Positions 16,324-28,336 of a stretch of 64,000 nt of DNA are shown in pieces. Position 1 is the first letter of the stretch. Each line of letters opens with the position of its first letter. The position numbers and the translations under genes were made by a program. The DNA comes from an uncultured Candidatus Saccharibacteria bacterium (GTDB taxonomy: Bacteria > Patescibacteriota > Saccharimonadia > Saccharimonadales > SZUA-47), in NCBI GenBank assembly GCA_964536485.1, contig CAZHXX010000005.1, forward strand, positions 42 through 64,041. The letters are read 5' to 3'. The notes under the pieces were generated by a model. The model was not told the DNA's origin. It saw only the letters and a program-made list of their open reading frames with translations, and made no database searches.

Positions 16324-18494
<2,171 letters not shown>

Positions 18495-18495
18495 C

Positions 18496-18813
18496 ATGGA
18501 CACAGCAACGACAAAAGATGATGCAACTGATCAGCATGCTCCAGTAAAAATTGATCCAAAGGCTGATCCTACCATGATGCAAATCAAGGTATATTCACCG
18601 TATCAAGTCTACTTTGATGAGTTAGCAACGAGCATCAGCGCCATAAACGATACAGGTCCTTTCGACATTTTAAAAGGACACCACCGCTTTTTGACTCTTC
18701 TTGTGCCCTGCGAACTTGTCATTGCGGCAGCAAAAGGCGAAGAAAAAATAAAGATTTCCCACGGGATTATGTATGTCAAGGAAGATCGTGTGACGGTCTT
18801 TCTTGATGTGTAG
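18496..18813 (+). CDS. atpC: F-type ATP synthase epsilon subunit
   Basis: MMQIKVYSPYQVYFD...FDILKGHHRFLTLLVPCELV matches epsilon beta-sandwich pattern; track ORF starts upstream overlapping atpD. Confidence 0.65.
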   Translation: MDTATTKDDATDQHAPVKIDPKADPTMMQIKVYSPYQVYFDELATSISAINDTGPFDILKGHHRFLTLLVPCELVIAAAKGEEKIKISHGIMYVKEDRVTVFLDV

Positions 18814-18843: not shown

Positions 18844-19818
18844 TTAGTCGATAACGATAAAGTCAAAACTTATAGAGCCTGAGGGTAGTGCTGTTGAGGT
18901 TGAGACGGTAAAGCCTGTGGTTGTCCTGTTTGACACAAACGAATAAGGTGCTGATGCATTCACAGGAGTTATGACAACATGAGGGTTGCTATTGAACGGC
19001 TTGTTGAAGCTAATGGTAGCAAGCGCACCACCACTCGCACTAGACCCAACGTTAATGGTTACTGTCCCAGCAGTATCGGTACCACTTATGGTCACCGTAC
19101 CACCCGAGCCAACAGCTCCACCTGAACTCACGCTTGGCGTGCCACCCCCAGCATCGATATGCTTGCCAAACTGCAAATCACCAGTGAGAGAAAGAGCATC
19201 AACTGTCAATGATGGAGCTGAGATTGGCCCTGCAAAAGAGCCTTGACCATTGACGGTAAGGTTCTTTTGAACCGTAAGAATGCCTTGGACGCTCGCGTCA
19301 CCCGCGATAGAGAGGGTATTTACCTGCACTTCATCAAAGGCACTTTTGCCAGAGACGGTGATACCAGGAAGGTTGAGGTCTCCACCAACTTTGATTGGTC
19401 CAGCCACATCAAGCCCGTCACGGATAAGTACTTTGCCGGCAAATACAGCGTTTGACTCAACGTTCAAAAGTTGCTTCGGGTCACCCACGGTTGCCTCATT
19501 GCTGGTGAGGCTGTCAATTGCATCCTGGGTGAGTTCTTGTGTCTTCACCGATTCTTCTTTTGCGGCCTGTTTGTTACTCGATTGCACGACCACGAAGATA
19601 ATAATGAGACTGATGATTATAAGGAGAATAAAAGCAAGCAAATAGATGTTGATGCGGTTTGCAATTTTAGTTGCAATGGAGCCTGGTGAGCGCTTCTTTT
19701 TTTTCTCTTCTGTTGATGAGCCTGCGTCAGGGGTTTCAGTAACAGTAGTGTCTTGCTCCTCCAACGTCTCCAGGGAATCAGCTGATTTTGATGCTTCGTC
19801 TTCTTTGTTCGGTTCCAT
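18844..19818 (-). CDS. membrane-anchored beta-solenoid (bactofilin-like repeat) protein
   Basis: Acidic N-terminus, one TM helix, then repetitive V/G/T-rich segments (VAGPIKVGGDLNLPGITVSG...TVTISGTDTAGTVTINVGSS) typical of beta-helical repeats. Confidence 0.4.
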   Translation of the reverse strand: MEPNKEDEASKSADSLETLEEQDTTVTETPDAGSSTEEKKKKRSPGSIATKIANRINIYLLAFILLIIISLIIIFVVVQSSNKQAAKEESVKTQELTQDAIDSLTSNEATVGDPKQLLNVESNAVFAGKVLIRDGLDVAGPIKVGGDLNLPGITVSGKSAFDEVQVNTLSIAGDASVQGILTVQKNLTVNGQGSFAGPISAPSLTVDALSLTGDLQFGKHIDAGGGTPSVSSGGAVGSGGTVTISGTDTAGTVTINVGSSASGGALATISFNKPFNSNPHVVITPVNASAPYSFVSNRTTTGFTVSTSTALPSGSISFDFIVID

Positions 19819-19959
19819 ATAACATGCTTAAGGTTTATTATTACCACCAGTGTATATGATTTGCCTTTTAATGTCACGAGAAAACGTAACCGTATTGCGA
19901 AGCTTCACATTCTGTGCAATAATCTTGTTAAAAGCAAAAGGATATTGGTAAAAACTCGC

Positions 19960-20643
19960 ATGGCACCTTATCAGCATCACGTCAATACCTACCGTAGAAT
20001 GCATCGTGCATCCAGAGTAAAGAAACTGTCAAAGTTAAGCCTATTTCTCGCGTCACTTGTTGCTATCGGCATTTCCGGAGATATATTGTGGCAAAAATTA
20101 CGAGCAGAAGATTCGGTGGTAAGCGTTGAGTCAACGTCTTCTGTTCAATCAGCTACGATTAACCTATTCCGTACTCCTTATTTTCAGTTTCAAGCAGATC
20201 GAAGCTGGGTCGAGGTTCCGGAAGTTAGCACTCCTACAAAGTTTATCTACAGAAGTTCCAATGGTCCGCTTTTAGAGCATCAGCTTACCGTCTATGTTAA
20301 TGAGCGTCCACCCGCTAAGCTAGCGGCTACTCATGTTTATACTGTAGCACTTGATGGTCGCAAGTTCAGCGAAGTACATCCAGCTGACAAGCACTGTAAT
20401 TCAGAGACAAAAGGCTTAAACAACGAGCCAAAAGTCATTACCTACAACGAAGTGACATTTAACTGTGATCTAGGCAGTTCTACTTTTTCTAGCTTCGTAG
20501 GGTTGCAGGGTGGCACGAATGAGATGGCAATTACTCGTCCAAATGGGGAGCAGGCAGTGTATTCTATCGTCTACGATGACCTGACTTTTTCTCCTAGCCC
20601 AAATCAAATAAATTCAATCATGAAGACGTTCCAGATTCATTAA
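19960..20643 (+). CDS. signal-anchored secreted hypothetical protein
   Basis: ATG at 19960 with AAAGGA SD; basic N-terminus and TM helix; track ORF begins at upstream alternative start. Confidence 0.4.
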   Translation: MAPYQHHVNTYRRMHRASRVKKLSKLSLFLASLVAIGISGDILWQKLRAEDSVVSVESTSSVQSATINLFRTPYFQFQADRSWVEVPEVSTPTKFIYRSSNGPLLEHQLTVYVNERPPAKLAATHVYTVALDGRKFSEVHPADKHCNSETKGLNNEPKVITYNEVTFNCDLGSSTFSSFVGLQGGTNEMAITRPNGEQAVYSIVYDDLTFSPSPNQINSIMKTFQIH

Positions 20644-20690
20644 AAGACAGCCAAAGCTTCTAGAACAACCTTTTTGCTTATGCTATAGTT

Positions 20691-21470
20691 ATGGCTATAG
20701 GTATGAGTAAAAAAGTTTTCTTCGTTATCGCAATAGCCACATTGTTTGTGGGCTCTTATAAAGATGTTGTCTATGCAGTTTCATCGTCGACAAACTATAG
20801 CGTGCAGGAATCAGCTTTTGGTGCGGGGAGCGGAAACGGTTCATCAGCAAGCTATGGTGCACAGGGTTCTGCTGGTCTTAATGGAGTAGGAAATGCCTCG
20901 AGCACCAATTATGACACGGTTGCAGGACTTATCACACCAGATGTTCCCTTCCTTGAATTTGTAGTTTCCGGTGCCACGGTTGATCTTGGTGTGCTCGATC
21001 CTAACACGCCTTCAAGCGGGGCTGCCCAGGCTGGTGCCTGTAACTGCTCGTTCTATGTTCGCTCATATGTTTCATCGGCATATGTGGTAACAACTATGTC
21101 GGCTCCGCCAACGAGTGAGTCTGGCAGGGTGCTAGCGGCAAAGGCAATCCAAGGCGTCCCGTCTTCGAGCCAAAGTGTCGAAGAGTTTGGTATAAACGTT
21201 GTGGCAAATTCCTCGCCTGCAATTGGTGCCGATCCAGTCAATCAGCCAGACAATAGCTTTGCCGATGGCGTTGCTGAAACTGGCTATAACGTCGCGAACC
21301 AATTCAAATACGCTATAGGTGATGTGATTGCACGTTCTGCAGGCACTGCTAATACAAAAGCCTGGGGCCAAACAGACTACACCATCAGCTATATCACCAA
21401 GAGCAGTACTTTGACGCCAGCCGGACTCTACAAGATGGATCATGTACTTGTAGCTACTTCTATTTACTAA
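20691..21470 (+). CDS. secreted protein, small paralog of the surface-protein family (WxL-like C-terminus)
   Basis: Signal peptide; shares TVDLGV block, paired Cys and GDVIARS / aromatic C-terminal motif with downstream paralogs. Confidence 0.45.
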   Translation: MAIGMSKKVFFVIAIATLFVGSYKDVVYAVSSSTNYSVQESAFGAGSGNGSSASYGAQGSAGLNGVGNASSTNYDTVAGLITPDVPFLEFVVSGATVDLGVLDPNTPSSGAAQAGACNCSFYVRSYVSSAYVVTTMSAPPTSESGRVLAAKAIQGVPSSSQSVEEFGINVVANSSPAIGADPVNQPDNSFADGVAETGYNVANQFKYAIGDVIARSAGTANTKAWGQTDYTISYITKSSTLTPAGLYKMDHVLVATSIY

Positions 21471-21559
21471 TAATTTAGTAACATTGATTGTTTCATGAAA
21501 GTATCATTTATATTAAGTAAATTTGTGGATAACTAGATTATTTTTGTGTAAAAATATGT

Positions 21560-21587
21560 TTGCTTCTGAAGACGTTTATGCTATAAA
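21560..21587 (+). promoter_or_regulatory. candidate sigma70-type promoter for surface-protein locus
   Basis: TTGCTT - 16 nt - TATAAA upstream of strong SD AAAAGGAG and ATG 21639. Confidence 0.3.
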
Positions 21588-21638
21588 TAAGAGGTAAATT
21601 AAAAATTAAACAAAAAAACACAAAAGGAGTACGTATAA

Positions 21639-22934
21639 ATGAATACGTCAATTTCAAAGACGGTAAGAGTTCGTTCTGCATTTGTTGCAGGCCTATTCTT
21701 ATTGGTCGTCGTTCTACCGCTTCTCGCAGTTGGTAGAGCATCTGCTTACGCTCAGCTGACAAACCGTCAGATAGCTATCGCTACCTCTGAAGTAAGTGCA
21801 GCTGACACGGTATACACCGTAAGCTTTAAGCCAGCAACAACAGGGAACATCAGAGGAATCGTCATTGATTTCTGTACTAGTCCTCTCGTTGGTACGGTAT
21901 GTACTGCGCCAACAGGTTTTGATACCCAAGAAGCAGGTCTTGGTGTCTACAACGAGTCTGGTTCTGGATTCGGTACAGGCTGGACACTCGATGGTACTGA
22001 AAGTACCTCAAACAAAGTGGTCATTAAAGATGCAAGCGGTGGAAGCGTGACTGCTGGTACAACAGTAAGCTTCGAGCTTGGTGACGGAACATCAGGTGAT
22101 GGGTTGACAAACCCTTCAACAAACGGTTCTTTCTACGCTCGAATCATGACCTATGCAGTAGCTACTGATGCTGATGCATATGATTCTGGTAGTACTGGTT
22201 CTAACAACCCACCATCAAGCACCGTTGACGCTGGCGGTATCGCTCTTAGCACTGCTAACCAGCTTACCGTGAACGCTCGTGTGCAGGAAGTCTTGCAGTT
22301 CTGTGTTGGGACAACTGACGCAGCTTCAGCAGATGACTGTACTGACATTTCTGGAACGACGGTTGATCTTGGAGTAATTCAAAGCGGTGCCCCAAGTATT
22401 TCACCTGTTTCAACCACAGTTGGTGGTAACAACAAGAGTGGTCTTGCAATGGTACGCACAAACGCAGTAAACGGCGTTGTGATCGACTACTTTGCTGAAC
22501 CAGTTACTGGTGACGGTGGATCAACTCACATGGCTTCACTACGTGTTAGTGGTGCAACTTGCACCGGCGACGGTACAATTGCTACTGGTTCTAAAGTTGA
22601 CCAGTGTTTCAACAGCTCAGGAACGACACAAGCTGTCTTTGCTGGTGCTGACGAAGGCTTCGGTATGACTGCTTCATCAGTTGACACCTCAAACGGAACA
22701 ACAGCCAATGTTGTAAGAGACGCAGAGTACGATGGTAACGGTACAAACGGTGCAGGTAACGGTTGGGCATGGGCTCAAGGTACACCTGACCGCATCGCAA
22801 GCTCTACTGGCTCTTCAGTAAAAGTTGTTGACGACGAAATGCTTAACTTGACCTTCGCAGCACAAGCTGCCGTAACGACTCCAACCGGTCAATACGGTGT
22901 CAAGAGCACATATATTGCAACAGCAAGCTTCTAG
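21639..22934 (+). CDS. secreted Cys-pair surface protein, paralog A (431 aa)
   Basis: Strong SD, signal peptide ending ASAYAQ, conserved C-x-C-TAP motif, Gly/Thr/Ser-rich, C-terminal ...TYIATASF. Confidence 0.6.
   Translation: MNTSISKTVRVRSAFVAGLFLLVVVLPLLAVGRASAYAQLTNRQIAIATSEVSAADTVYTVSFKPATTGNIRGIVIDFCTSPLVGTVCTAPTGFDTQEAGLGVYNESGSGFGTGWTLDGTESTSNKVVIKDASGGSVTAGTTVSFELGDGTSGDGLTNPSTNGSFYARIMTYAVATDADAYDSGSTGSNNPPSSTVDAGGIALSTANQLTVNARVQEVLQFCVGTTDAASADDCTDISGTTVDLGVIQSGAPSISPVSTTVGGNNKSGLAMVRTNAVNGVVIDYFAEPVTGDGGSTHMASLRVSGATCTGDGTIATGSKVDQCFNSSGTTQAVFAGADEGFGMTASSVDTSNGTTANVVRDAEYDGNGTNGAGNGWAWAQGTPDRIASSTGSSVKVVDDEMLNLTFAAQAAVTTPTGQYGVKSTYIATASF
21736..22927 (+). repeat. tandem duplication copy 1 (1192 bp, near-identical to 23155-24346)
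   Basis: Direct comparison: offset 1419 bp, identical except a few substitutions near 21758-21767; antisense ORF echoes in the track are duplicated too. Confidence 0.85.
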
Positions 22935-22956
22935 TAACAACTAGATATCCACAAAT

Positions 22957-22998
22957 AAAGCACAAGCAGTTTAAGAAACACTTGTGCTTTATTTAATT
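22957..22998 (+). terminator. rho-independent terminator between duplicated genes
   Basis: AAAGCACAAG - 14-nt loop - CTTGTGCTTT followed by ATTTAATT. Confidence 0.5.
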
Positions 22999-23057
22999 GT
23001 TTGTTAATATATTTTTGCAAACCCTAAAACAAAAACATTTAAATAAAAGGAGTGCAT

Positions 23058-24353
23058 ATGATACATGCATCGACTCTTCCTAAAAGGGTCAATAGCTTGC
23101 TTTTGGCAGGCGTAATTATGGCTTCGGTAATAGTACCGTTGCTAGTAACCGCGCGAGCATCTGCTTACGCTCAGCTTTCACAGCGTCAGATAGCTATCGC
23201 TACCTCTGAAGTAAGTGCAGCTGACACGGTATACACCGTAAGCTTTAAGCCAGCAACAACAGGGAACATCAGAGGAATCGTCATTGATTTCTGTACTAGT
23301 CCTCTCGTTGGTACGGTATGTACTGCGCCAACAGGTTTTGATACCCAAGAAGCAGGTCTTGGTGTCTACAACGAGTCTGGTTCTGGATTCGGTACAGGCT
23401 GGACACTCGATGGTACTGAAAGTACCTCAAACAAAGTGGTCATTAAAGATGCAAGCGGTGGAAGCGTGACTGCTGGTACAACAGTAAGCTTCGAGCTTGG
23501 TGACGGAACATCAGGTGATGGGTTGACAAACCCTTCAACAAACGGTTCTTTCTACGCTCGAATCATGACCTATGCAGTAGCTACTGATGCTGATGCATAT
23601 GATTCTGGTAGTACTGGTTCTAACAACCCACCATCAAGCACCGTTGACGCTGGCGGTATCGCTCTTAGCACTGCTAACCAGCTTACCGTGAACGCTCGTG
23701 TGCAGGAAGTCTTGCAGTTCTGTGTTGGGACAACTGACGCAGCTTCAGCAGATGACTGTACTGACATTTCTGGAACGACGGTTGATCTTGGAGTAATTCA
23801 AAGCGGTGCCCCAAGTATTTCACCTGTTTCAACCACAGTTGGTGGTAACAACAAGAGTGGTCTTGCAATGGTACGCACAAACGCAGTAAACGGCGTTGTG
23901 ATCGACTACTTTGCTGAACCAGTTACTGGTGACGGTGGATCAACTCACATGGCTTCACTACGTGTTAGTGGTGCAACTTGCACCGGCGACGGTACAATTG
24001 CTACTGGTTCTAAAGTTGACCAGTGTTTCAACAGCTCAGGAACGACACAAGCTGTCTTTGCTGGTGCTGACGAAGGCTTCGGTATGACTGCTTCATCAGT
24101 TGACACCTCAAACGGAACAACAGCCAATGTTGTAAGAGACGCAGAGTACGATGGTAACGGTACAAACGGTGCAGGTAACGGTTGGGCATGGGCTCAAGGT
24201 ACACCTGACCGCATCGCAAGCTCTACTGGCTCTTCAGTAAAAGTTGTTGACGACGAAATGCTTAACTTGACCTTCGCAGCACAAGCTGCCGTAACGACTC
24301 CAACCGGTCAATACGGTGTCAAGAGCACATATATTGCAACAGCAAGTTACTAA
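23058..24353 (+). CDS. secreted Cys-pair surface protein, paralog B (near-identical mature region)
   Basis: SD AAAAGGAG + ATG 23058 (track lists GTG 23052); different signal peptide, mature region identical to paralog A, last residue Y instead of F. Confidence 0.6.
   Translation: MIHASTLPKRVNSLLLAGVIMASVIVPLLVTARASAYAQLSQRQIAIATSEVSAADTVYTVSFKPATTGNIRGIVIDFCTSPLVGTVCTAPTGFDTQEAGLGVYNESGSGFGTGWTLDGTESTSNKVVIKDASGGSVTAGTTVSFELGDGTSGDGLTNPSTNGSFYARIMTYAVATDADAYDSGSTGSNNPPSSTVDAGGIALSTANQLTVNARVQEVLQFCVGTTDAASADDCTDISGTTVDLGVIQSGAPSISPVSTTVGGNNKSGLAMVRTNAVNGVVIDYFAEPVTGDGGSTHMASLRVSGATCTGDGTIATGSKVDQCFNSSGTTQAVFAGADEGFGMTASSVDTSNGTTANVVRDAEYDGNGTNGAGNGWAWAQGTPDRIASSTGSSVKVVDDEMLNLTFAAQAAVTTPTGQYGVKSTYIATASY
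23155..24346 (+). repeat. tandem duplication copy 2
   Basis: See copy 1. Confidence 0.85.
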
Positions 24354-24402
24354 ACTAACTAATCTGTTTTAGGATTTTGCAAAAGACTAATAGAATAGGG
24401 TT

Positions 24403-25467
24403 ATGAGACGAAAAAAACAAATCAGTTTTAGATTTCATAATGTCGCACGAGCGTTGTTGTTAGCAACGCTCGTGTCCCTATATAGTCTCTTTATCCCATT
24501 TAAAGCTCAGGCAACAGACCTCGCGAGCCGTAGTATCAGCTTAAAAAGTTCAGTCGCCGGAGAAACTACCCAGCACTTATTCACCTTTACGAACCCTACT
24601 GCATCCACGCTTGGGTCTATAAAATTTGAGTATTGTCAGAATAGCCCGTTGTTTTTTGAATCTTGTACGGCACCAGGCGGGCTAAACCTCTCTTCAGCAA
24701 CGCTCGCCGTGCAGACGGGTAATGCGGGGTTTGTAAAAGACCCTCTTTCGACGGCTACGTCACTTATTATAAGTAGAACGCCTGGAGGTTCTCTCAGCAC
24801 GGTCAATACTTACAGATTTGATTCAGTAATTAACCCTACAACAATCAACACCACCTATTTTGTTCGTATAAGCTTATACGCAAGCAATAATGCCACCGGT
24901 GTAAGCTTCGATCAAGGTGCGGTCGCCTTTAGTACAAGTGGTGGGTTTAGTATCGGTGCTTACGTCCCGCCGTTTATGATATTTTGCGTTGGCGTTACCG
25001 TAGCACAAGATTGTAGCAGTACGGTAGGAAGCTTGGTCAATTTTGGTGAACTTGAGTCTAATAAGACATCTTTTACCACTACACAGTTTGCCGGTGCCAC
25101 GAATGATCCAACGGGTATGCAGGTTTTTCTCAACGGCCAGACAATGACCTCCGGAAATAACACTATACCGGCGCTAGCAGTAAACTCTTCGAGCGCCACT
25201 GGGACCTCTCAATTTGGGGTGAACTTGCGCTCAAACAATGCTCCATCGGTTGGCTCGAGTCGAACTGGCCCCGGAACAATGTTTGCAACAACTAATTATG
25301 ACGTACAGAACCAGTACCGCTTCGTGGATGGAGACGTCATCGCGCGCTCCACTATTTCAACAGACTTTACGCGCATGACCGTTAGCTACATTGTTAATGT
25401 GAGCGAAGACCAAAAACCTGGTATTTACGCAACGACGCTTCTCTATACAGCCCTTGCAAGTTTTTAA
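24403..25467 (+). CDS. secreted surface protein, divergent paralog (354 aa)
   Basis: Signal peptide, FEYCQNSPLFFESCTAPGG (same C-x-C-TAP motif), FCVGVT..DCS block, GDVIARS and C-terminal ...TLLYTALASF. Confidence 0.5.
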   Translation: MRRKKQISFRFHNVARALLLATLVSLYSLFIPFKAQATDLASRSISLKSSVAGETTQHLFTFTNPTASTLGSIKFEYCQNSPLFFESCTAPGGLNLSSATLAVQTGNAGFVKDPLSTATSLIISRTPGGSLSTVNTYRFDSVINPTTINTTYFVRISLYASNNATGVSFDQGAVAFSTSGGFSIGAYVPPFMIFCVGVTVAQDCSSTVGSLVNFGELESNKTSFTTTQFAGATNDPTGMQVFLNGQTMTSGNNTIPALAVNSSSATGTSQFGVNLRSNNAPSVGSSRTGPGTMFATTNYDVQNQYRFVDGDVIARSTISTDFTRMTVSYIVNVSEDQKPGIYATTLLYTALASF

Positions 25468-25532
25468 TTTTATACTTGCTATTACTGCTACACTTTATTA
25501 AGCTAGTGTTAAAAGCAAATGAAGGAGAAGTA

Positions 25533-26504
25533 ATGATACAAAAACTTAAAGTTATAGTGCTTTCTGTGCTATTTACCATTGTGAGTATGCCGGCGTTGTC
25601 AGCGTCTGCACAAGAAAATGTGGTGGGGAGCGGGCTAAGTATTTCGCCAACAAGAACCGATCTTGTTGTCAATGCAGGAACAACAGCAGATCTAACTATT
25701 TCGCTAAAAAATGTCACTGGAGGACTTATCACCGCTAAAGCGTTCATGAACGACTTTGAACCAGATGGTGTTTCTGGCGAACCTAGACTGATTACCGACA
25801 GTGGGGTAAAGTCTGCATCATCAATCAAGGATTTTCTTGTAGGTCTTGAGGACGTATCTCTAGGTGTTGACGAGACGAAAGAGCTTAAACTAAAAGTTGA
25901 AGTACCAGCAGAAGCTTCACCTGGCGCATATTACGGCGTTATCCGCTACCAGGCTGTTCCAGTGAATGAAAATGGTGAAGAATCTGGCGGTGGACAGGTT
26001 GCGCTTACCGCAAGTGTGGGAACGATTGTTCTTGTAGAAGTGCCTGGTAACATCACCCAGAAGATTGAAATCAAAAGCCTAGCTGCCTATATTGGTGACA
26101 AAAAAGGGAAGTTCTTTACAAAGCGTCCTGAACAAGTGGGAATAAATGTCGAGAACCTTGGTAACGGCTTTGCACGACCTTTCGGTAAAGTAACTGTTAC
26201 TGACATGTTTAACAAACAAGTATTTTCATACGAAATGAACAATACTAACCCACGTGGCGTTGTGATGCCTAGCTCAACTCGTCTTTTCAAAGACAGTGTG
26301 AACGGGATTAGCAAGCCTGGACGATATAAGCTGGCTGCGGACATATCATATGGAAATGGCGGAGAAGTATACAGTATTTCGTCTACATTCTGGTATGTTC
26401 CAACGTGGCTCGTGATTACACTCCTTGTATTGTTGCTTGCTCTCGTAGGAGTCGCCTTATACCTAACACGCAAATACAAGACTCGCTCAATGAGACGCCG
26501 ATAA
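25533..26504 (+). CDS. cell-surface protein with C-terminal TM anchor, CscA-like (DUF916/DUF3324-like architecture)
   Basis: SD GAAGGAG + ATG 25533; signal peptide, SISPTRTDLVVNAGTTADLTISLKN beta-rich domain, PGAYYGVIRYQ block, single C-terminal TM followed by RKYKTRSMRRR. Confidence 0.5.
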   Translation: MIQKLKVIVLSVLFTIVSMPALSASAQENVVGSGLSISPTRTDLVVNAGTTADLTISLKNVTGGLITAKAFMNDFEPDGVSGEPRLITDSGVKSASSIKDFLVGLEDVSLGVDETKELKLKVEVPAEASPGAYYGVIRYQAVPVNENGEESGGGQVALTASVGTIVLVEVPGNITQKIEIKSLAAYIGDKKGKFFTKRPEQVGINVENLGNGFARPFGKVTVTDMFNKQVFSYEMNNTNPRGVVMPSSTRLFKDSVNGISKPGRYKLAADISYGNGGEVYSISSTFWYVPTWLVITLLVLLLALVGVALYLTRKYKTRSMRRR

Positions 26505-26529
26505 TTAGCACACACATACAAAGTAAAAA

Positions 26530-26557
26530 GCTCCCGCTATTCTCGCGGGAGCTTTTT
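26530..26557 (+). terminator. rho-independent terminator
   Basis: GCTCCCGC-tattct-GCGGGAGC followed by TTTTT. Confidence 0.7.
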
Positions 26558-26641
26558 CTATTGAGGCCAAAATCTTGTTGCGCTTACGCTTCCTATAGCT
26601 TACAATTACAGGTGTAACATTACGTAATATAAAGATTAAAA

Positions 26642-27589
26642 ATGAAAAAGTATCTACCACTCACGTGGCAAGACATGAAACGCCTACTTCTTGTCGTTTC
26701 GTTTAGTATTGCTGCTTTCTTTCTTGTGCTTGGTGCCCAGCCGGCATACGCACAGAGCACGGACCCAGAACAATCTGGGTCTGTTGGTTTGACTGGTACG
26801 ATAAGCGCACCGCCTCCAACGCAGGGTGCAAGCATTACCTTTCCAACAGGCGGACAATCCTTTACCGAAATGCCTGTTCCTGTGCGTGGGCTTTGTCCAA
26901 AGGGCCTGTTAGTGAAGCTTTTTAAGAACAATGTCTTTGCCGGCTCAGTACAGTGCGATAGTGGCACGTTTGAGCTAAGTATTGACCTATTTACAGGGAC
27001 AAATGATCTGATTGCTCGAGTCTATGACGAGCTTGACCAGCCTGGACCAGATTCTGCAACGGTGACAGTACAATTTGTAGACCCACGTAGAGGTGCCGGT
27101 ACTCGTGTAAGTGCTACCAGCAACTTTGCAAAGCGTGGGGCGAACCCGGGTCAAACGCTCACCTGGCCACTCATCATTAGTGGTGGGTCAGGACCATATG
27201 CAATTAGCGTTGATTGGGGAGACGGCAAAACAGCAGATCTTTTGAGTCAGCCATTTCCAGGTACACTAGATCTCTCGCATATTTATGATGCTGCCGGTGT
27301 GTATAACATTGTCATAAAAGTGAGTGATTCTAACGGTGGTACCGCCTTTTTGCAAGTAGTTGGTATTGCCAACGGCCCGCTTACCCAGACAAATGCGGAT
27401 GGTACGCCAATCGGGACAAAAGATGATGGTGTTGCCTTTATCGCCTCAGGAAGAACCACTATTGTTTGGTGGCCAGCGACTATTACAGTACCTTTTATTG
27501 TTTCTACCTTTTGGCTTGGTAAACGTTATATGCTGCGTGTTATGAAGAAGCGTATAGAGCGTGGTGAGCACCCGTTCTCAGATATTTAA
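26642..27589 (+). CDS. PKD-domain surface protein with C-terminal TM anchor
   Basis: Signal peptide; PKD signature ISVDWGDGKTAD...HIYDAAGVYNIVIKVSDSNGG; C-terminal TM and basic tail. Confidence 0.55.
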   Translation: MKKYLPLTWQDMKRLLLVVSFSIAAFFLVLGAQPAYAQSTDPEQSGSVGLTGTISAPPPTQGASITFPTGGQSFTEMPVPVRGLCPKGLLVKLFKNNVFAGSVQCDSGTFELSIDLFTGTNDLIARVYDELDQPGPDSATVTVQFVDPRRGAGTRVSATSNFAKRGANPGQTLTWPLIISGGSGPYAISVDWGDGKTADLLSQPFPGTLDLSHIYDAAGVYNIVIKVSDSNGGTAFLQVVGIANGPLTQTNADGTPIGTKDDGVAFIASGRTTIVWWPATITVPFIVSTFWLGKRYMLRVMKKRIERGEHPFSDI

Positions 27590-27778: not shown

Positions 27779-28336
27779 TTAGATCGAGATAAAAGGTAAT
27801 GAATTTTTTTCTGCTACATCGTGAATTTGTGAAGGTGAATGCGATCTCAGATGATAAGAATATCGAGGGCTGGCCAGGAAAATGATTCCTGTAACTACAA
27901 GTAAGCGTGGATCAAGCACTACCTCGTTGTTTGTAATGGGAGAGGTTTGTTCAAGTAGTTGGTTGGCTTCATGTGGAGACAGTCTTGATAAGCGGTCTAG
28001 ACTTTCGTCGTCTATCCAAATATCGGTAGCGCTGGTAGCAATAATGGCGTCATCCGGAGCTTCAAGTATTAGGCCGTGTGAACCGCTAACAAAAAGTGGG
28101 TTTACTTCGTGACTTATTAAACTCGCTGAGATCACCGGTTGTCGATTGCGGCTTGTTCGGTGGCCCGTTCCTAAGGGAATGTCGATTTCAGTAAGATCAT
28201 CTATGAAGTATCTTTTTCTTTTTTGCTCATAGTCTATAAACCCGCTATCGATATGTACAAGATAGCGGTAGCTTTCCGGGTCATGACAGGCAGGATCTGT
28301 TACGCCTCCCCAAACTGTAAAATGCGTGCCAGGCAT
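27779..28336 (-). CDS. hypothetical protein
   Basis: 185-aa ORF divergent from mnmA; no motif recognised. Confidence 0.4.
   Translation of the reverse strand: MPGTHFTVWGGVTDPACHDPESYRYLVHIDSGFIDYEQKRKRYFIDDLTEIDIPLGTGHRTSRNRQPVISASLISHEVNPLFVSGSHGLILEAPDDAIIATSATDIWIDDESLDRLSRLSPHEANQLLEQTSPITNNEVVLDPRLLVVTGIIFLASPRYSYHLRSHSPSQIHDVAEKNSLPFISI

Follow-up and report, generated by a model that had tools for sequence, protein, structure and literature searches.

A probable Pam-type pilus operon in a Saccharimonadia genome, with a chaperone homologous to CscA/WxLIP proteins

We analysed a 64-kb stretch of DNA (contig CAZHXX010000005.1, hereafter the window) from an uncultured Candidatus Saccharibacteria bacterium, in which six consecutive genes probably make up an operon for a Pam-type pilus, the kind of thin filament described from Candidatus Mycosynbacter amalyticus. 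The six open reading frames (ORFs) were verified on the + strand at 20691-21470, 21639-22934, 23052-24353, 24403-25467, 25476-26504 and 26642-27589. An earlier note on this DNA had reported six consecutive genes on one strand, and their coordinates, strand and lengths were all found as given, although the likely start codons shorten two of the products, from 433 to 431 aa and from 342 to 323 aa. The same note took all six products to be exported and they do look so, as each of them carries a basic stretch, a hydrophobic stretch and an AxA-type site at the N-terminus. The AlphaFold2 (AF2) models of the 323-aa and the 354-aa proteins open with an N-terminal helix, which is followed by beta structure. 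Signal peptides were assigned from the n-region, h-region and AxA features together with the N-terminal helices in these two models. NCBIfam provides names for the locus proteins, on which Pfam is almost silent. The three models concerned (NF058578, NF058579 and NF058581) derive from the preprint on the M. amalyticus filaments (bioRxiv 10.64898/2026.03.03.709456).

According to this preprint, the thin filaments of M. amalyticus seen by cryo-electron microscopy (cryo-EM) are built of two pilins, PamA and PamB, which polymerise by linker-strand insertion, the pilin domain of one subunit accepting the linker of its neighbour (bioRxiv 10.64898/2026.03.03.709456). The operon encodes PamE as a third two-domain pilin and PamT, which has the C-terminal domain only and is the proposed tip. 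PamC and PamD are PapD/FimC-like chaperones with a C-terminal transmembrane (TM) helix. The RbmA-like PamR starts with a strand, ends in a TM helix and is proposed to be terminator and anchor. The operon adjoins ATP synthase genes and a gene for a 'tail fibre-like' protein (bioRxiv 10.64898/2026.03.03.709456).

The first of the six genes (20691..21470, +) encodes a 259-aa protein identified with NF058579, NF058581 and BLASTP as a PamT-like single-domain (tip-type) pilin. Behind the signal peptide comes an N-terminal stretch rich in Gly and Ser, then VPFLEFVV, a strand resembling a linker, and finally the C-terminal domain of Pam pilins. The PamT model NF058579 matches it with full-length coverage (E 1.1e-64, 218.1 bits, equivalog cut-off 240), and it passes the model of the C-terminal domain, NF058581 Pam_pilin_C, with 114.6 bits against a cut-off of 55. 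We noticed that the Gly/Ser-rich mature N-terminus (residues 30-92) contains a repeated S-T-N-Y motif. The two-domain pilins have VPPFMIFCVG as donor linker, and the segment VPFLEFVV can be aligned with it. PamT has been described without a linker strand (bioRxiv 10.64898/2026.03.03.709456).

The next three genes encode two-domain pilins. Two of them are tandem copies of a major-type pilin of 431 aa, the first (21639..22934, +; BLASTP and hidden Markov model, HMM) with a mature mass of 39.3 kDa and three invariant Cys pairs. The third (24403..25467, +; NF058581 and AF2) stands in the position of PamE and encodes a 354-aa pilin with a mature mass of 33.2 kDa and two invariant Cys pairs. In its AF2 model (pLDDT, the predicted local distance difference test score, of 91), two domains are joined via a linker, with an N-terminal beta-sandwich at residues 41-177, the conserved linker at 186-200 and the C-terminal Pam pilin domain, and the protein passes NF058581 with 145.8 bits (cut-off 55). 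When 61 homologues of the 354-aa pilin are compared, no 15-residue stretch is better conserved than the linker 186-200 (0.83). The last 18 residues come second (0.78) and the N-terminal domain reaches 0.56.

The four pilins had been proposed to be paralogues, which is borne out but in graded form. BLASTP aligns the 431-aa with the 354-aa protein across the N-terminal domain and linker (E 7e-19) and the 259-aa with the 354-aa protein across the C-terminal domain (E 5e-11), while the 259-aa and 431-aa proteins align with E 0.005. An HMM built from homologues of the 354-aa pilin matches all four pilin genes (6e-30, 7e-29 and 2e-16) and nothing else in the 64 kb. The Cys motifs C-x(8-10)-C-TAP and FCVG..DC, thought to be common to the four, are present in the three two-domain proteins and are confined to these, the 259-aa protein having neither. 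The Cys residues are invariant, C78, C88, C195 and C204 across 61 homologues of the 354-aa pilin and six Cys across 58 homologues of the 431-aa type, as is expected for extracellular, disulfide-stabilised subunits. The C-terminal aromatic motif pointed out before is real. All pilin classes terminate in G-x-Y-...-[F/Y], with the Gly located 14 residues ahead of the terminal F or Y.

The second copy of the major-type pilin (23058..24353, +; blastn, protein alignment and P0003) starts at GTG 23052 in the ORF list. The most likely start is ATG 23058, which gives 431 aa, has AAGGAG ahead of it and matches the database protein P0003, from the same 97.5-kb NCBI contig. Over 1209 nt (21736-22943 vs 23155-24361), blastn finds 99.3 % identity between the two genes. 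The mature copies differ at two residues right after the signal peptide and at the last residue, which is Y in copy 2 and F in copy 1, and the copies also differ in the parts coding for the signal peptide and in the intergenic terminator/promoter region. Tandem large-pilin pairs were found also in the relatives L003 (5966-8792) and L004 (6100-8818). In the window the members of the pair are ~100 % identical (mature proteins), compared with 96.7 % for L004 and 80 % for L003, and large pilins of different genomes share 34-67 %. This pattern suggests that the shaft pilin, as a highly expressed subunit, evolves in concert through gene conversion or has been duplicated repeatedly. Two Logan contigs, L001 and L002, which are independent short-read assemblies of the same organism, break directly upstream of the 354-aa gene. 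As assemblies break at the duplicate, the repeat is likely collapsed or missing in many metagenome-assembled genomes (MAGs), and surveys may therefore give too low counts of large-pilin genes.

The fifth gene (25533..26504, +) encodes a membrane-anchored chaperone of the PamD/PamC type with two immunoglobulin-like (Ig) domains, a CscA/WxLIP homologue of 323 aa (AF2, Foldseek, PF06030 and hhalign). Its most likely start is ATG 25533, with AAGGAG upstream, and homologues measure 322-325 aa. The signal peptide is followed by two domains (35-144 and 161-288), a TM helix (291-314) and a basic tail, and the AF2 model (pLDDT 89.8) shows a signal helix, two beta-sandwiches and a C-terminal TM helix. 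The top Foldseek matches of this model in PDB were WxLIP structures, namely the WxLIP of E. faecium 9i1y (E 3.4e-11) and 9i25, a WxLIP bound to a long WxL protein (E 3.8e-10). RbmA came next, then CfaA, YadV, Caf1M, CsuC, FimC, SafB, PapD, FaeE and DraB (E 2e-9 to 2e-6). The likeness to PapD is one of fold only, as none of the 61 chaperone relatives matched the Pfam PapD models at E<=0.01.

The relationship with WxLIP proteins could be followed at the sequence level as well. The window protein matches DUF916 (PF06030) below threshold (E 0.043, 14.3 bits vs 27.3), while 49 of its 61 relatives match at E<=0.01, the best with 3.2e-7. DUF3324 (PF11797) has no Pfam match in the 61 relatives. For comparison, 68 Firmicutes loci were gathered by the WxLIP motif NQIDKxxxYFDLK, giving 50 WxLIP and 57 small WxL proteins. 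Pfam verified 50/50 WxLIPs (PF06030 and PF11797) and 56/57 WxL proteins (PF13731). At full length, hhalign of the chaperone family against the 50 WxLIPs gave a probability of 98.7 % and E 2.8e-16, with 252 colinear columns over both domains, and without the signal peptide and TM segment still 95.6 % and E 1.1e-8. Domain 1 alone matched the N-terminal (PGBD) domain of WxLIPs (96.5 %, E 9.3e-10), domain 2 alone was not significant (6.8 %, E 0.005), and the reversed and cross-domain controls gave E>=0.015. CscA proteins have been defined by a size of 320-380 aa, a basic isoelectric point (pI), one copy per cluster and a C-terminal TM segment (PMC1534035). The chaperone has all of these features, with 323 aa, a mature pI of 9.0, the TM helix at 291-314 and a single copy, as the HMM of its family finds no other gene in the 64 kb. 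The fifth protein, described as CscA-like in the earlier note, is thus a true homologue of CscA/WxLIP. This kinship is an addition to the preprint and absent from it. The preprint does not mention WxL, DUF916 or Csc, and among the papers searched we found none linking the Pam chaperone with WxLIP.

The sixth gene (26642..27589, +) encodes PamR, an RbmA-like/PKD-like two-domain protein of 315 aa (NF058578 and family alignment). It scores 381.8 bits with NF058578 (cut-off 300) over profile positions 9-296 of 297, and 252 representative clusters were recovered at E<=1e-30. The protein has a conserved mature N-terminal strand (SGSVGLTGTISAPPP), which in the family reads nPQSGSiGLxGxVxGPPP, and ends in a TM helix and a basic tail. 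It had been presented as a PKD-domain protein with a C-terminal anchor. The anchor is there and the WGDG core is invariant in the family, but the PKD match stays below the Pfam threshold (22.6 vs 27 bits). The N-terminus also gives a weak match to the EF2685/EF0750 family (E 0.027). PamR is proposed to be the terminator of the pilus and its membrane anchor. Many distant PamR homologues carry a conserved cytoplasmic N-terminal motif, approximately LSxHxHTG(K/R)xLxxxHTSY, ahead of the hydrophobic segment. This motif is missing from the PamR of the window and may be a targeting or sorting signal specific to the candidate phyla radiation (CPR).

Gene order is conserved in relatives. The contigs L003 (924 kb, from the Joint Genome Institute) and L004 (52 kb) show the same order as the window, in which atpA-G-D-C, the gene of a beta-solenoid protein and that of a ~228-aa TM protein are followed by PamT, two tandem large pilins, a ~350-aa pilin, a 324-aa chaperone, PamR, mnmA and alaS. 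The named close homologues come from MAGs of Candidatus Saccharibacteria/Saccharimonadales. Within the 64-kb window, the cluster HMMs find no further pilin or chaperone genes, and at the locus itself there is no gene of the size of an usher, the largest ORF having 433 aa and every ORF being accounted for. Because of the NCBIfam matches, the context provided by the preprint, the gene order in relatives and the homologues in Saccharibacteria, we consider the locus to be a Pam-type pilus operon of Saccharimonadia (CPR/Patescibacteria), with a probability of roughly 0.8. Gene content, family assignments, folds, conservation patterns and synteny are what the analysis shows. The identity as such is not a discovery, since Pam is already covered by NCBIfam and the preprint and was named only in 2026.

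Several observations weigh against this identification. The PamT-like protein is 22 bits short of the equivalog cut-off and the 431-aa pilins score 13 bits on Pam_pilin_C, below the cut-off of 55. The latter are tied to the Pam pilins via the N-terminal domain and the linker (E 7e-19; HMM 6e-30). The chaperone matches no NCBIfam model at all, and, unlike M. amalyticus, the locus has one chaperone and no PamB/PamC module downstream of PamR. Fold searches with the whole pilin model gave generic Ig-like matches only (integrins, MSCRAMMs, cohesins). Moreover, the signals of orthology conflict. Synteny equates the 431-aa pilins with PamA and the 354-aa pilin with PamE, but the mature mass of 39.3 kDa and the three Cys pairs of the 431-aa type fit PamB, which has 38.7 kDa and three pairs, PamA having 55.3 kDa and two pairs (bioRxiv 10.64898/2026.03.03.709456). 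Finally, the preprint is unreviewed and its chaperone, order and anchor steps are AlphaFold predictions. Searches of PDB sequences with the 431-aa, 354-aa and 323-aa proteins returned no meaningful match, and the family profiles A1 and A3 recovered neither WxLIP, WxL nor Pam chains from PDB sequences.

The best-supported mechanism would be the model of the preprint applied to a simpler gene set. All products would be exported by Sec, and the C-terminal domain of each pilin is predicted to be an incomplete Ig-like domain with an open groove. The membrane-anchored two-Ig chaperone (25533-26504) would cap this groove through strand donation. As the chaperone is tethered to the cytoplasmic membrane, an outer-membrane usher would not be needed. 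Donor-strand exchange would follow and join the subunits into a polymer, each new pilin displacing the strand of the chaperone with its conserved inter-domain linker. The one-domain PamT-like protein would be placed at the tip, the duplicated 431-aa pilin would form the shaft and the 354-aa pilin would act as a proximal adaptor. The N-terminal strand of PamR may enter the last subunit, with its C-terminal helix keeping the fibre in the membrane. The fibre probably reaches and binds host bacteria. Experiments have established polymerisation by linker insertion for M. amalyticus only. In the source organism of the window we infer it, as we do the role of the chaperone, the order of subunits, anchoring by PamR and every other step. 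That the linker is the most conserved segment of the 354-aa pilin fits strand donation indirectly. The model also agrees with the conserved mature N-terminus of the PamR family and with the lack of a gene large enough for an usher at the locus.

The earlier note interpreted the locus as a Csc/WxL-type complex. On this account the products would form a non-filamentous platform on the peptidoglycan, with the paralogues as WxL-like wall binders and the fifth protein as a CscA/WxLIP stabiliser. We consider it improbable. The fifth protein is a true WxLIP homologue and the architecture parallels CscA/B/C/D (PMC1534035), so that the CscA-like part of the proposal stands, but neither WxL domains nor an LPXTG protein corresponding to CscD could be found. 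No LPXTG sorting signal was recognised at the C-terminus of any of the six proteins. PF13731 (WxL) had no match in the window proteins and none in 61 homologues at E<=0.1. In hhalign comparisons against the 56 verified WxL proteins, the pilins reached a probability of 22 % at full length and 1.7 % with the C-terminal domain, the pooled C-terminal-domain profile of PamT/E/A reached 0.2 %, and further set-ups with this domain (with or without linker, pooled, global mode) were all insignificant. The C-terminal G-x-Y-x3-L-x-Y does resemble Y-x3-L-x-W-x-L of WxL proteins and is the top local alignment between the families. This sole aligned piece is a 20-residue C-terminal hairpin (VNVSxxQxPGvYAtTLtYtA vs LsVPgxTxKxxxYtTTLTWxL, E 0.03), and in a control the same 'PG-Y-...' hairpin scored also against Ig domain 1 of the chaperone (E 1e-3). 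Since the chaperone Ig domain is matched too, we regard the hairpin as a generic feature of Ig F-G hairpins rather than evidence of WxL homology. By profile comparison, the four pilins are not detectably WxL-domain proteins. The family models label the genes as Pam pilus components, and relatives of these proteins have been imaged as filaments by cryo-EM, which argues against a wall-bound platform as well.

The generic matches obtained with the whole-chain pilin model (integrins, MSCRAMMs, cohesins) would also suit a set of secreted adhesins or S-layer-like proteins that are unrelated, have Ig-like folds in common and do not assemble with each other. This is even less probable than a Csc/WxL platform, as gene order is strictly kept in relatives, conservation peaks at the linker and the C-terminal strand and not at exposed surfaces, a dedicated chaperone-like gene is present and the Pam family models match. 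We give almost no credence to the idea, raised before as an alternative, that the aromatic C-termini are beta-signals of outer-membrane proteins, which would imply an outer membrane and the beta-barrel assembly machinery (BAM) pathway. The terminal F or Y is indeed invariant in the pilin families, but the models are soluble beta-sandwiches and not barrels, and no beta-signal needs to be invoked, the aromatic residue at the end being part of the C-terminal strand of the Pam pilin domain. Chaperone-usher pilins likewise carry conserved C-terminal aromatic motifs. A sortase-built pilus was considered and rejected, as no C-terminus has an LPXTG signal and the ORFs of the locus are otherwise assigned; the scan for sortases was confined to the locus.

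Regarding transcription and translation signals, the situation differs from gene to gene. A terminator-like hairpin followed by UUUAUUU is located between the duplicate pilin genes (22953..22994, +; -18.5 kcal/mol, z -4.1, none of 200 shuffles as stable). Behind the chaperone gene we identified a strong bidirectional intrinsic-terminator-like hairpin (26525..26557; -23.3 kcal/mol, z -5.7) with a 13-bp stem, an A-run before and a U-run after it. The search found no hairpin 3' of the second duplicate or of the 259-aa gene, so the internal terminators expected after the duplicated genes and the anchored gene exist behind the first duplicate and the anchored gene but not behind the second duplicate. 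A clear Shine-Dalgarno sequence precedes three of the six genes, fewer than the strong ones assumed for the locus. A promoter of its own had also been suggested, but sigma-70-like sites were rarer than in shuffled sequences (10 vs 15.2) and this claim is therefore not retained. Because the scan is not enriched, we make no promoter claim beyond a shared element, TATGCTATA(G/A), which is found at 20672-20690 and 21575-21600, before the PamT-like gene and the first large-pilin gene. In the case of the PamT-like gene, the TATGCTATA element ends 2 nt before the ATG and there is no Shine-Dalgarno sequence. TATGCTATA might serve as the extended -10 element of a promoter. The mRNA of PamT could lack a leader or have only a very short one.

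Upstream of the operon, atpG/atpD/atpC occupy 16324-18813 (ORF list and Pfam). They are followed by a divergent gene (18844..19818, -; ORF, weak Pfam and synteny) for a 324-aa beta-solenoid protein with an N-terminal TM anchor. This neighbour was described correctly before, and its gene is found in the same position and orientation in L003 and L004. The protein has an acidic N-terminus, a TM helix at ~55-77, a bactofilin-like region (Pfam E 1e-4, sub-threshold) and a weak H-type lectin match at the C-terminus. Its gene corresponds to that of the 'tail fibre-like protein' of the preprint. Between the solenoid and PamT-like genes lies a conserved protein of 227 aa (19960..20643, +; start at 19861 in the ORF list) that is anchored by an N-terminal TM segment, contains two Cys and matches no family. 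Homologues of 227-228 aa are located inside the cluster in L003 and L004, in L003 between PamT and the major pilins, and the 227-aa protein is a probable accessory component of the Pam locus. Downstream, a 185-aa ORF without family match (27779-28336, -) is situated between PamR and mnmA. It is present in L001, which is from the same organism, and not at that position in L003 and L004.

What the window adds to the known identity of the locus is the link to WxLIP, a minimal gene set and the homogenised pilin duplicate. This minimal version, in which a single chaperone and an anchor accompany one pilin for the tip, one for the shaft (in duplicate) and one as adaptor, shows the core parts of the system. 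In the preprint, Pam is presented as "distinct from any previously characterized filament system", and no origin is assigned to it (bioRxiv 10.64898/2026.03.03.709456). The homology of the chaperone with CscA/WxLIP connects Pam in evolution with the Gram-positive surface clusters, a large family that includes enterococcal and listerial virulence loci of debated mechanism. Pam fibres are candidates for host capture by episymbionts of the CPR.

A pattern similar to that of Pam was noticed in the Firmicutes clusters. In eight loci (L005, L018, L020, L031, L037, L050, L060 and L070) a CscD-like LPXTG protein and a small WxL protein share a mature N-terminal strand motif (for L005, YESNGKVSF in WxL and YESNGKISF in CscD-like). 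Elsewhere the motif has the pattern xGI(T/S)F or xV(T/S)F, and in WxL proteins a Pro-rich linker usually comes next. No such N-terminal strand motif is present in the large WxL proteins (787 and 936 aa). A tip adhesin, a strand-donating subunit and an anchored terminator plausibly parallel PamT/A/E/R. From this logic of strand motifs and from the homology of the chaperones, Pam and Csc/WxL are plausibly related usher-less systems of single-membrane bacteria. Pam pili and the Firmicutes Csc/WxL clusters could even have branched off from a common, ancient donor-strand system that relied on chaperones and had no usher. We put this forward tentatively and at somewhat less than even odds, because the subunit domains show no detectable homology. 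If it were true, CscA/WxLIP would be a membrane-tethered chaperone of the pilus type instead of a 'host-binding' protein. The small WxL proteins would donate strands as subunits, the large ones would serve as adhesins at the tip, and CscD would correspond to PamR, as a terminator anchored by sortase. The kinship of the chaperones leads to predictions in both directions, namely that WxL clusters may assemble via donor-strand exchange and that Pam chaperones may also touch peptidoglycan.

Of the known systems, the Pam operon of M. amalyticus is closest in composition. Both have a PamT-like tip pilin, two-domain pilins with a conserved linker and paired Cys and, anchored by TM helices, a PapD-like chaperone and an RbmA/PKD-like PamR. 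Every one of these proteins has a signal peptide, and both operons are found in Saccharimonadia next to ATP synthase genes and a tail-fibre-like gene. In the window, the gene of the shaft-type pilin is tandemly duplicated and homogenised, the large pilins are smaller (431 aa, 39 kDa mature, vs 55 kDa in M. amalyticus) and an extra conserved TM protein lies upstream. With the chaperone-usher pili (Pap, Fim, CFA/I, Caf1, Csu) the locus shares the two-Ig fold of the chaperone (Foldseek E 2e-9 to 2e-6), subunits predicted to be incomplete Ig domains completed by a donated strand, and a C-terminal Gly...aromatic motif. Unlike these pili, it has no usher and no outer membrane, the chaperone is tethered to the membrane, the proposed donor strand is the inter-domain linker rather than an N-terminal extension, and the subunits carry an extra N-terminal domain. 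RbmA of Vibrio cholerae, after which NCBIfam and the preprint call PamR RbmA-like, is a matrix protein of tandem FnIII domains. PamR differs from it by the signal peptide, the N-terminal strand, the C-terminal TM anchor and a second domain with a PKD-like WGDG core.

In the Csc/WxL clusters of Lactobacillales and Bacillales, CscA is a WxLIP made up of DUF916, DUF3324 and a TM segment, CscB and CscC are WxL proteins and CscD is a short LPXTG protein. The Pam-type locus differs from them in several respects. Its subunits have no detectable WxL domain, DUF3324 by itself gives no significant signal, a two-domain protein with a TM helix takes the place of the LPXTG peptide as anchor, and the organism belongs to the CPR and not to Firmicutes. 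The product of Pam is a long filament, whereas Csc has been described as a wall-bound complex. In both systems one subunit consists of just the shared domain, others carry this domain at the C-terminus of a multi-domain chain, and a small protein is anchored. Their chaperones are homologous in profile and structure and alike in size, basic pI, single copy and C-terminal TM segment. An AF2 prediction has a hairpin strand of WxLIP completing the beta-sandwich of WxL (PMC10599100), and PDB 9i25 is a WxLIP bound to WxL. PamC and PamD have been proposed to work on this principle too. Such strand insertion would amount to donor-strand complementation in all but name.

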